DNA from: Escherichia phage LF82-1
Sequence record: PV648359
DNA: 64,000 nt
Strand: one strand, 5' to 3'
Positions 51,111-51,206 of this stretch are shown piece by piece; the first letter of the stretch is position 1; each line of letters begins with the position of its first letter. Under the pieces are notes generated by a model. That model did not search any database, was not told the DNA's origin, and worked only from the letters and a program-made list of their open reading frames with translations. The position numbers were made by a program, and so were the translations under genes.

Positions 51111-51188
51111 TATATTTACCTTTATTTAGATTATTTAGATTATTTAATTTATTTACAGTTGGTTGCTACGACACTTATACCTCGTAGC
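51111..51188 (-). promoter_or_regulatory. gene 32 autoregulatory translational operator (hairpin plus AU-rich repeat leader)
   Basis: mRNA leader has a 7-bp stem (GCUACGA/UCGUAGC) followed by UAAAUAAAUUAAAUAAUCUAAAUAAUCUAAAUAAAGG repeats directly before the ATG. Confidence 0.6.
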
Positions 51189-51198
51189 TGGTATGATT

Positions 51199-51206
51199 TA
51201 TTTATA
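51199..51206 (-). promoter_or_regulatory. late promoter TATAAATA (gene 32, minus strand)
   Basis: Plus-strand TATTTATA = minus-strand TATAAATA ~90 nt upstream of gene 32. Confidence 0.55.

Follow-up and report, generated by a model that had tools for sequence, protein, structure and literature searches.

In T4-like phages the gene 32 operator serves as a textbook example of how a replication protein can use RNA to sense its own free concentration, and to our knowledge its pseudoknot is the only viral one reported in translational autoregulation so far. How gp32 discriminates its own mRNA from other RNA was left open by the studies of 2004 (PMC535899) and 2010, and the leader in front of gene 32 in Escherichia phage LF82-1 (record PV648359; 64,000 nt analyzed, hereafter the window) raises the question of what this operator consists of and which of its parts vary between phages. 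We are highly confident that the minus-strand segment 51206-51108 comprises the translational operator and late promoter of gene 32 of an RB69-like phage (Mosigvirus), and its anatomy includes a pseudoknot supported by covariation, an unstructured A+U-rich tract and identity with the RB69 operator. This is a known translational operator and not a new one, because it shares an identical pseudoknot and ribosome-binding region with RB69, for which probing, footprints and repression have been published (PMC535899). The LF82-1 operator thus adds no new principle; it illustrates that a regulatory RNA can be recognized from raw sequence alone, as the first reading of this stretch confirms, and its covariation, lattice polymorphism and motifs would bear on this question of discrimination by gp32.

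Investigating the identity of the locus, we found a 601-nt query spanning the gene 32 leader to be 100% identical to Escherichia phage LF82-2, while the RB69 59-32 record (AY301284) shows 94.8% identity to the LF82-1 sequence; the stretch is that of an RB69-like Mosigvirus. [quoted passage not shown] From the gene 59 stop codon to the gene 32 AUG (51108-51110, minus strand) are 125 nt, and the transcription unit is closed by an intrinsic terminator at 50187-50204 of the minus strand (GGGAGACUUCGGUCUCCC followed by UUUU). A plus-strand ORF overlapping the leader (51072-51212, 46 aa) was taken as a chance ORF in AT-rich DNA, antisense to a conserved RNA element. Every leader element named in the first-pass annotation was found on the minus strand where it had been placed.

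The most conspicuous of these elements, a 7-bp hairpin, is indeed present as the sole stable element of the minimum free energy (MFE) fold, but it is not a simple hairpin; it is half of a pseudoknot. On the minus strand GCTACGA (51188-51182) pairs with TCGTAGC (51171-51165) over 7 bp, and a pseudoknot scan further paired ATACC (51194-51190) with GGTAT inside the hairpin loop. The resulting H-type pseudoknot, AUACC-A-GCUACGA-GGUAU-AAGUG-UCGUAGC at -84 to -55 from the AUG, thus has the hairpin as its stem 2. Its stem 1 is built from the 5' arm AUACC (51190-51194) and the 3' arm GGUAU (51177-51181), the latter lying in the hairpin loop and abutting stem 2, both supported by the scan and by covariation; stem 2 is built from GCUACGA (51182-51188), the 5' half of the hairpin, and UCGUAGC (51165-51171), both supported by the MFE fold in addition to scan and covariation. 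Loop 1 is a single A (51189), invariant in eight of eight sequence types, and loop 2, taken from the scan, is AAGUG (51172-51176), a segment whose length differs by lineage from 3 to 7 nt. Calculated for the helices alone, both stems are favorable (-4.1 kcal/mol for stem 1, -8.6 kcal/mol for stem 2), and the dimensions are those of the class: 4-6 bp in stem 1, a single nucleotide as loop 1, 7 bp in a stem 2 that directly adjoins stem 1, and a loop 2 of few nucleotides. Searching 50000-52000 with Rfam covariance models at E values up to 10 returned chance-level matches only (E of at least 1, with bit scores well short of the gathering threshold), and a gene 32 operator model seems to be missing from Rfam.

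T4-like phages from at least five genus-level groups show compensatory changes that support the pseudoknot. The covariation set consisted of eight sequence types (T4, T2-type, RB69-type, Klebsiella Marfa, Serratia CHI14, Erwinia Cronus and others) taken from gp32-anchored loci, and seven of the twelve pseudoknot pairs change on both sides across it. Owing to the variable length of loop 2 (3-7 nt), MAFFT misplaced the 3' arm of stem 1 when the whole pseudoknot region was aligned, and a gap-free, arms-only alignment in structural register was used instead. In this register 95.8% of the cells are paired, as opposed to at most 40.6% in slid registers, a percentage inflated by the origin of the arms in a structure-based scan, a bias that the slid-register and shuffle controls mitigate but do not remove. 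The observed covariation score was reached by none of 500 shuffles, for sequences that are phylogenetically related, and a pseudoknot of at least 12 bp arose in 6 of 800 shuffled-leader trials. The architecture is common to the leaders of Mosigvirus, T4, T2-type phages, Marfa, CHI14, Cronus and related phages, where it lies at -66 to -93.

Comparison with the T4 gene 32 operator, a pseudoknot at -67 with UUAAA/UAAA repeats (PMC3014915, PMC535899), revealed the same arrangement of H-type pseudoknot and A+U-rich tract; the first-pass annotation had suggested this comparison. Both phages share the 1-nt A loop 1, the 7-bp stem 2, a junction without intervening nucleotide, the ACCAACUGU flank, an unstructured stretch rich in A+U that reaches the AUG, and a repressor of the same protein family. 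They differ in stem 1 (4 bp, UGCC/GGUA, in T4; 5 bp, AUACC/GGUAU, in LF82-1), in a compensatory change of stem 2 (U-A in T4, C-G in LF82-1), in the repeat unit and tract length (UUAAA and 36 nt in T4; UAAAUAAUC-type units and 54 nt in LF82-1) and in the upstream region, where in T4 the segG (32.1) ORF overlaps the 5' arm of the pseudoknot and no TATAAATA lies directly upstream. The T2 pseudoknot, known from the NMR structure PDB 2TPK (Holland et al. 1999, cited in PMC3014915), has the same H-type fold with coaxially stacked stems, and T2-type leaders (RB18, IME537, Ac3) carry stem 1 UGACC/GGUCA, an A as loop 1 and stem 2 GCUAUGA/UCAUAGC, i.e., compensatory double changes relative to LF82-1 in two pairs of stem 1 and one of stem 2. 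Their loop 2 is longer (7 versus 5 nt), as is the distance from late promoter to pseudoknot (17 versus 4 nt). The closest known counterpart is the operator of RB69 (Borjac-Natour, Petrov & Karam 2004, Virol J 1:4; PMC535899; GenBank AY301284), a member of the same genus with its operator likewise between genes 59 and 32, which equals LF82-1 in the pseudoknot sequence, the 3' flank AACCAACUGU, the Shine-Dalgarno region and the AUG context; outside the operator, in the spacer that precedes the late promoter, three substitutions separate the two phages.

Downstream of the pseudoknot follows an A+U-rich tract of 54 nt (51111-51164, minus strand; 85% A+U), the proposed gp32 lattice, recognized by its fold and its RB69 equivalent. 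The first-pass annotation had described reiterated AU-rich elements ending at the start codon, and UAAAU occurs six times in this tract, which reaches the ATG at 51110. Stable structure across the tract would have spoken against the operator, but none is predicted (MFE -1.7 kcal/mol, z = +0.72), and the UAAA/UUAAA-type reiteration is kept in related phages. The stretch from pseudoknot to AUG through the Shine-Dalgarno region is thus longer than 40 nt, A+U-rich, unstructured and reiterated; its RB69 counterpart, 9 nt shorter, is A(-1) to A(-45), which was experimentally unstructured. The Shine-Dalgarno region AAGGU (51118-51122, minus strand; GG at -10 and -9), read from the sequence and identical to that of RB69, falls in the zones of the RB69 footprint, weak from U(-2) to G(-9) and strong from U(-14) onward (PMC535899). 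The ribosome-binding site may not be fully open, since the fold predicts a weak 4-bp pairing of the Shine-Dalgarno GGU with +25 to +29.

Within the tract, Tandem Repeats Finder and alignment delimited an array of 3.8 copies of a 9-nt unit of the UAAAUAAUC and UAAAUAAAU type (51122-51155, minus strand; 92% matches, score 54), the only array of the window with more than 2.5 copies; six arrays score at least 40. The sole difference between the LF82-1 and RB69 operators is one extra unit, UAAAUAAUC, which accounts for tracts of 54 and 45 nt, respectively. Across Mosigvirus the spacer ranges from 45 to 63 nt, so that in this single genus the lattice bound by gp32 is a tandem repeat of polymorphic length. 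With a gp32 site size of approximately 7 nt, the extra unit would lengthen the lattice by about one monomer. In our view it is most likely a polymorphism produced by replication slippage, whose effect on the set point of repression is modest at most, and it is also rather probable that the extra unit and the variation in repeat number are entirely neutral slippage without regulatory consequence. Different 9-mers are expanded in different phages (UAAAUAAUC in LF82-1 and SHSML-52-1, UAAAUAAAU in mogra and PhAPEC2) and the spacers of HX01 and pEK20 carry indels of 4-6 nt, as slippage in a short tandem array would give; every repeat allele stays unstructured, with a mean probability of being unpaired of 0.78 for the 3.8 copies of LF82-1, 0.73 for 2.8 copies (RB69) and 0.84 for 4.8 copies (SHSML-52-1), and the gp32 proteins of RB69 and T4 repress each other's differently sized operators (PMC535899). 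However, all spacer variants are A+U-rich, unstructured and never shorter than 45 nt in the sample, which argues that length and composition of the tract are constrained, and RB69 gp32 covers five more residues of its own, longer target than of the T4-derived one (PMC535899), so that lattice length does affect occupancy. On a speculative reading, the Mosigvirus spacer could be a hypermutable short tandem repeat whose copy number sets how many gp32 monomers are needed and thereby the intracellular gp32 set point.

The repressor is conserved alongside its proposed target. LF82-1 gp32 is 92% identical to RB69 gp32 and aligns full-length with the gp32 structures of T4 (8GME) and RB69 (2A1K/2ATQ); the cooperativity segment (residues 1-21) is identical to that of T4 in 20 of 21 positions, KRKST included, and the Cys/His zinc ligands are conserved in the alignment, so that the protein retains its cooperativity segment at the N-terminus as well as the Zn-containing core that binds ssDNA. 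In RB69 the leader from A(-1) to A(-45) is hypersensitive to DMS and DEPC, insensitive to RNase V1 and footprinted by gp32, the pseudoknot is sensitive to RNase V1, and the stretch protected by gp32 runs from U(-14) to G(-61); in vivo, expression rises approximately 4-fold once the leader is deleted, and in vitro, purified gp32 is enough to repress translation (PMC535899). By analogy with these and the T4 experiments, gp32 would bind the LF82-1 leader and repress translation; the earlier proposal of autoregulation through cooperative binding to an unstructured leader, nucleated at a folded element, agrees with what is documented for T4 and RB69 (PMC535899, PMC3014915) and is very probably valid here. 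The gene 32 mRNA would bear the H-type pseudoknot at or near its 5' end, followed by the 54-nt unstructured tract of reiterated UAAAU-type units with the Shine-Dalgarno region and the AUG inside. As long as single-stranded DNA is present, gp32 would be titrated onto DNA and the mRNA translated; with rising free gp32, the protein would nucleate at the pseudoknot and polymerize cooperatively 5' to 3' along the tract via its N-terminal domain, covering the ribosome-binding site and blocking initiation. Other autogenous systems resemble this scheme in part. Gene 43 of T4 and RB69 encodes a replication protein, the DNA polymerase, that represses its own mRNA via structured RNA beside the ribosome-binding site (PMC3014915), but its operator is a simple hairpin with a specific loop, without pseudoknot, repeat lattice or cooperative polymerization. 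E. coli rpsO (S15) is likewise under autogenous translational control via a pseudoknot in its own leader (PMC3014915). It has no sequence or evolutionary relation to the gene 32 operator. S15 traps the ribosome on the mRNA and does not spread cooperatively along an unstructured lattice.

Upstream of the pseudoknot, an exact match to TATAAATA on the gene 32 coding strand (51199-51206, minus strand; -96 to -89 from the AUG) is predicted to be a T4-type, gp55-dependent late promoter box, in line with the minus-strand late promoter that had been proposed upstream of the hairpin. The box is enriched in the window (20 copies versus 7.08 expected; none of 100 shuffles reached 20) and conserved in relatives: it is kept in 11 of the 11 RB69-type leaders listed, the leaders of T2-type phages, CHI14, Cronus and Marfa likewise carry a late box just 5' of the pseudoknot, and the record of phage SA35RD annotates the homologous site as a late promoter. 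The call draws on sequence, conservation and position. Transcripts from T4 late promoters depend on gp55, gp33 and gp45 and begin about 6 nt past the box. These promoters need no -35 element and carry the box approximately one helical turn upstream of the start, spanning -13 to -6 (PMC2988020), which would place the +1 at about 51193 (±1, i.e., 51192-51194, minus strand), where the 5' arm of stem 1 begins. Late transcripts should therefore start on the first pseudoknot bases, and the late mRNA would begin at the pseudoknot; with the predicted start inside the 5' arm, it may keep only three to five of the five stem 1 pairs. This would be the same kind of 5' end that T4 gene 32 transcripts acquire by RNase E processing at -71 (PMC3014915), and a late start at the pseudoknot would fit the known stability of gene 32 mRNA. 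The single-stranded AAUC directly 5' of the pseudoknot (51195-51198, minus strand) aligns with the T4 -71 site and is a candidate RNase E site, a likeness of sequence context only (GAAUUAUGCC in T4, AAAUCAUACC in LF82-1), and this context varies among Mosigviruses (AAAUUAUACC in SA35RD, AAAACAUACC in AV112).

The placement of the late promoter, apparently for transcripts starting at the pseudoknot, also suits a mainly positive leader, in which the pseudoknot shields the mRNA from 5'-end-dependent decay and the A/U tract serves as a site for ribosomal protein S1 or as a translational enhancer. A/U-rich unstructured leaders in general favor initiation. Gene 32 mRNA is moreover the most stable T4 message, and trimming leaves all of its species with a 5' end immediately ahead of the pseudoknot (PMC3014915). 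As the main role of the leader this is nevertheless improbable, given that in RB69 deletion of the leader raises gp32 synthesis and purified gp32 represses, the opposite of what a purely positive element would do, and that gp32 footprints extend over the tract (PMC535899); the repressor and positive roles are compatible, and the latter is therefore more an added function than a true alternative to the translational operator. That the hairpin is a rho-independent terminator of gene 59 transcription is very improbable. In its favor, the 34 nt homologous to it carry the label 'rho-independent terminator' (from WebGeSTer) in the SA35RD record, and the hairpin is stable (-8.6 kcal/mol) and downstream of gene 59. 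Yet a G+C-rich hairpin with a U-run is not what we found, since the stem is followed by AACCAACUGUAAAU, and a terminator scan of 50100-51900 called nothing but the true terminator at 50204-50187. The loop also base-pairs with a segment further upstream, showing a covariation that a terminator does not need, and polycistronic T4 transcripts continue into gene 32, with processing at -71 (PMC3014915).

Besides the known operator elements, the leader carries a conserved AACUGU motif directly 3' of the pseudoknot (51155-51160, minus strand). Among 32 dereplicated leaders it was found 44 times versus 1.62 expected (approximately 27-fold) and was present in 29 of 32, while across the 64-kb window AACUGU showed no enrichment. 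A full-text literature search for AACUGU with gene 32 or gp32 returned no mention, in a body of text that covers few papers from subscription journals and is thus no proof; its conservation in gene 32 leaders seems to be undescribed, and the other lineage-specific reiterated motifs are likewise without mention in the operator literature searched. AACUGU could be a recognition or nucleation determinant for gp32, standing in for the pseudoknot where the latter is absent. More generally, the gp32 operator may go beyond a pseudoknot joined to arbitrary unstructured AU-rich RNA and carry lineage-specific reiterated determinants that co-evolve with gp32, with AACUGU perhaps replacing the pseudoknot and copy number perhaps tuning the response, a proposal that we regard as speculative and on balance unlikely. 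In lineages without the spacer, AACUGU occurs in three reading frames of gene 59, and the phages keeping it inside gene 59 are those that lack the spacer as well as the pseudoknot; CC31 has three copies at the 3' end of gene 59. Cyanophage-related T4-like phages carry other reiterated units, AAUACA and AAAUUAAUCC.

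Read on the minus strand and numbered so that position -n, counted from the AUG, is window coordinate 51110+n, the junction of genes 59 and 32 comprises the gene 59 stop codon (51238-51236), a 29-nt spacer, an exact TATAAATA late-promoter box (51206-51199, -96 to -89) directly followed by AAUC, an H-type pseudoknot, an A+U-rich tract and the SD region AAGGU (51122-51118) ahead of the gene 32 AUG at 51110. The span 51111-51206, which a first-pass annotation had read as the gene 32 leader, thus runs from position -1 up to the first T of TATAAATA, and all elements listed for it were found. 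The gene 32 ORF (51110-50211, minus strand, 299 aa) has a Pfam match to PF08804 (gp32) and aligns over its full length with T4 gp32 (PDB 8GME) and also with the RB69 gp32 core (2A1K, 2ATQ), while the ORF upstream matches both gp59 domains. The terminator scan placed an intrinsic terminator 3' of gene 32 (50204-50187), immediately followed by two tandem paralogous small ORFs on the minus strand (49711-50097, 128 aa; 49287-49649, 120 aa), which share the N-terminus M(E/K)IGK(S/T)YIINP and have as counterparts at the equivalent place in the RB69 record Frd.3 and Frd.2, annotated without function.

A 601-nt query over the region was 100% identical to Escherichia phages LF82-2, LF82-7 and LF82-31 and 92-98% identical to many further Mosigvirus genomes, with 94.8% identity to the RB69 gene 59-32 record AY301284; 160 records matched, 151 of them with at least 80% query coverage. 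In the alignment, RB69 and the window have an identical late-promoter box, pseudoknot, AACCAACUGU flank, SD region and AUG context, RB69 A(-45) corresponding to window 51164, the first base past stem 2, and G(-61) to 51180, within the stem 1 3' arm. Since these operator elements are identical and the two gp32 proteins share 92% identity, we regard the window element as an already known one, the RB69-type translational operator of gene 32, which experiments have characterised in the type phage of this genus; residual novelty lies in a repeat-number polymorphism, the motif AACUGU and lineage-specific motifs, all of them side observations. Rfam appears to hold no model for a gene 32 operator.

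Between AACUGU and AAGGU lies a run of UAAAU-type units, and the reiteration noticed earlier before the start codon was resolved by Tandem Repeats Finder into a 9-nt unit in 3.8 copies (51122-51155, 92% matches, score 54), the only one of six arrays scoring at least 40 in the whole 64-kb window to exceed 2.5 copies. The segment from -54 to +20 folds weakly (MFE -1.7 kcal/mol, shuffle mean -2.91, z = +0.72, with 148 of 200 shuffles folding at least equally well), and mean P(unpaired) across the tract is 0.78 in full-leader context, with low values only at the SD GGU, so that no stable structure crosses the tract and its description as unstructured holds. Across the 14 Mosigvirus leaders that we read, stem 2 is separated from the AUG by 45 nt in the RB69-type reference, 46 nt in AV112 and FL31, 47 nt in JN02, 51 nt in HX01, ChristianSchoenbein and pEK20, 54 nt in the window, 56 nt in PhAPEC2 and 63 nt in SHSML-52-1, which carries two extra UAAAUAAUC units. 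The window tract has one UAAAUAAUC more than RB69, SA35RD, O157 typing phage 3 and one IMG/VR contig; mogra also reaches 54 nt, by duplication of a different 9-mer, UAAAUAAAU, and its record annotates a repeat_region at the leader repeat. All UAAAUAAUC alleles are predicted to be unstructured (mean P(unpaired) 0.73, 0.78 and 0.84 for 2.8, 3.8 and 4.8 copies), which, together with the varied spacer lengths, suggests a slippage-prone short tandem repeat constrained to stay long, A+U-rich and open. For the extra unit, neutral slippage is the simplest explanation. RB69 gp32 protects five more residues on its own target, which is longer, than on the T4-derived one (PMC535899), showing that gp32 occupancy follows length; a tuning of repression by repeat length is a candidate effect. 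In all three alleles, a weak 4-bp pairing of marginal energy is predicted between the SD GGU(A) (51118-51121) and GACCU in the coding region (51081-51085, +25 to +29).

The 7-bp hairpin of the first-pass annotation is the sole stable element in the leader's MFE fold, yet it is half of a pseudoknot and not a simple hairpin, as its loop sequence GGUAU can pair with AUACC just 5' of it. Pseudoknot prediction, which had been suggested as a check, recovered an H-type fold of stem 1 5' arm AUACC (51194-51190), a single A as loop 1 (51189), stem 2 5' arm GCUACGA (51188-51182), stem 1 3' arm GGUAU (51181-51177), loop 2 AAGUG (51176-51172) and stem 2 3' arm UCGUAGC (51171-51165, followed by AACC-AACUGU), i.e., stems of 5 and 7 bp, a 0-nt junction and a 5-nt loop 2, with free energies of -4.1 (stem 1) and -8.6 kcal/mol (stem 2) for each helix alone. 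Scanning 140 nt upstream of gene 32 in relatives from IMG/VR and GenBank located this architecture at -66 to -93 in all Mosigviruses scanned and in T4 (UGCC-A-GCUAUGA-GGUA), and furthermore in T2-type phages (UGACC-A-GCUAUGA-GGUCA), in loci L017/L032 (GUCC-A-GGUGCAA-GGAC), in L021 (AUGCC-A-GGUGUGA-GGCAU) and in L022 and L023 (UACC-A-GAUGCAA-GGUA), where L017, L021 and L023 are 100% identical to Klebsiella phage Marfa, Serratia phage CHI14 and Erwinia phage Cronus, respectively; a pseudoknot of at least 12 bp appeared in 6 of 800 shuffled-leader trials. In a gap-free alignment of the arms from eight distinct sequence types, standard pairs occupied 95.8% of cells compared with 26-41% when partners were slid by 1-3 columns, percentages that lean toward the structure because the alignment was built in structural register from related sequences; 7 of 12 pairs showed changes on both sides, and 0 of 500 shuffles matched the observed covariation score. 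Two such changes are plain in the raw sequences: the fifth pair of stem 2 (C-G in RB69-type, U-A in T4 and T2-type) and the fourth pair of stem 1 (U-A in RB69-type, G-C in T2-type). Loci L030/L031 (~1110-1160) retain a helix resembling stem 2 (GGUGUAG/CUACAUC) and perhaps a stem 1 (UGAC/GUCA), but 10 inserted nt separate the 5' arm of stem 2 from the 3' arm of stem 1, and AACUGU is absent; this leader may be a variant pseudoknot missed by the scan.

In the public SA35RD record (OL960577, positions 913-946 of its locus, equivalent to window 51194-51161), the homologous hairpin is labelled a rho-independent terminator (WebGeSTer). This is not supported, as no U-run follows the stem, the terminator scan did not call the hairpin and the covarying loop pairing would be left unexplained; with the U-run missing, the label looks like a mis-annotation, which could propagate.

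The T4 operator is described as a ~28-nt 5' pseudoknot plus >40 nt of less structured RNA in which UUAAA/UAAA repeats and the ribosome-binding site lie; autogenous repression requires the pseudoknot as well as the less structured part, binding being nucleated at the pseudoknot and then spreading cooperatively across the ribosome-binding site (PMC535899; PMC3014915). The window leader has the same pseudoknot architecture at its 5' side and a UAAA-type reiterated tract before the AUG. For RB69, A(-1) to A(-45) were reported as DMS/DEPC-hypersensitive and RNase V1-insensitive and the pseudoknot as RNase V1-sensitive, gp32 gave strong protection from U(-14) to G(-61) and weak protection from U(-2) to G(-9), leader deletion raised expression ~4-fold in vivo, and purified gp32 repressed translation in vitro (PMC535899). 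The match to this characterised operator supports the earlier proposal that gp32 would, by analogy, autoregulate its translation in the window phage. A leader that only stabilises or enhances would contradict the derepression and repression seen for RB69 (PMC535899); a stabilising contribution alongside repression is likely.

The window contains 20 copies of TATAAATA, where 7.08 would be expected (maximum among 100 shuffles, 14), and the copy upstream of gene 32 is, as first read, a predicted late promoter. With the T4 late box at -13 to -6 (PMC2988020), the predicted +1 is ~51193, which is base two in the 5' arm of stem 1. Spacing is similarly tight in CHI14 (TATAAATA-UCAGU-AUGCC) and Cronus (TATAAATA-AGUAU-ACC), unlike in T2-type and Marfa leaders, whose box lies 17-22 nt upstream of the pseudoknot. 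T4 has no late box within 135 nt; instead, the homing-endonuclease gene segG (32.1; 1-417 of the T4 locus) overlaps the pseudoknot 5' arm and takes the place of the late-promoter spacer of RB69-type and T2-type phages (compared with window 51195-51235), a point taken up earlier by Borjac-Natour et al. (2004; PMC535899). RNase E cuts all T4 gene 32 transcripts four bases 5' of the pseudoknot, at -71 (PMC3014915), in a context, GAAUUAUGCC, that aligns with window AAAUCAUACC. We infer that in each of these phages mature gene 32 mRNA would have its 5' end at the pseudoknot, via initiation or processing, which fits nucleation there and the unusual stability of this mRNA. Transcription starting inside stem 1 could cut it to 3-4 bp, a range that includes the natural T4 length of 4 bp. 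Within gene 59, ~370 nt upstream of gene 32, GCTT-N15-TATAAT (51473-51497, minus) fits the T4 middle-promoter (MotA box) pattern, is annotated as a middle promoter in the SA35RD record and is likely to feed gene 32.

AACUGU lies just 3' of the pseudoknot (51160-51155, minus). Among 32 dereplicated gene 32 leaders of Tevenvirinae type, the final 70 nt yielded 44 copies against 1.62 expected, and 29 leaders had the motif, typically as AAAACUGUWAA and at -23 to -56 in most lineages examined; across the window it is not enriched (50 vs 43 expected). CC31-type phages, in which 10-18 nt separate the end of gene 59 from gene 32, have no pseudoknot and carry AACUGU three times within gene 59 at ~10-13-nt spacing in three different reading frames (CC31 locus, 1153-1181), with four copies in locus L025 (1136-1183). 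The end of the window gene 59 encodes a near-identical peptide with zero AACUGU. The pattern as a whole points to nucleotide-level selection. No mention of AACUGU with gene 32 was found in the searchable literature, a scope outside which older subscription papers fall.

More distant aquatic T4-likes (gp32 identity 38-44%, nearest cultured relatives cyanomyoviruses; loci L033-L082, ~90 nt 5' of the gp32 start, for example L054 1090-1150 and L067 1100-1160, also L133 350-389) instead show AAUACA, with 22 occurrences against 0.28 expected (~80-fold) in 10 of 14 dereplicated leaders, and Prochlorococcus phage P-SSM2 carries AAAUUAAAUCC-AAAUUAAUCC right before the SD. Short A-rich reiteration in gene 32 leaders is thus widespread with a lineage-specific unit, and a repeat lattice may be a general feature of gp32 leaders. 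Many non-T4, non-RB69 lineages (L008, L011, L012, L018-L020, L023, L027, L028, L030 and L031, ~1192-1203) carry a further in-frame AUG, placed 6 nt before the conserved start (MFKRK), as AUGUCUAUG or, in L019, AUGUCUAUGUCUAUG; there, MSMFKRK is the probable N-terminus of gp32, or else a 6-nt repeat has duplicated the start codon.
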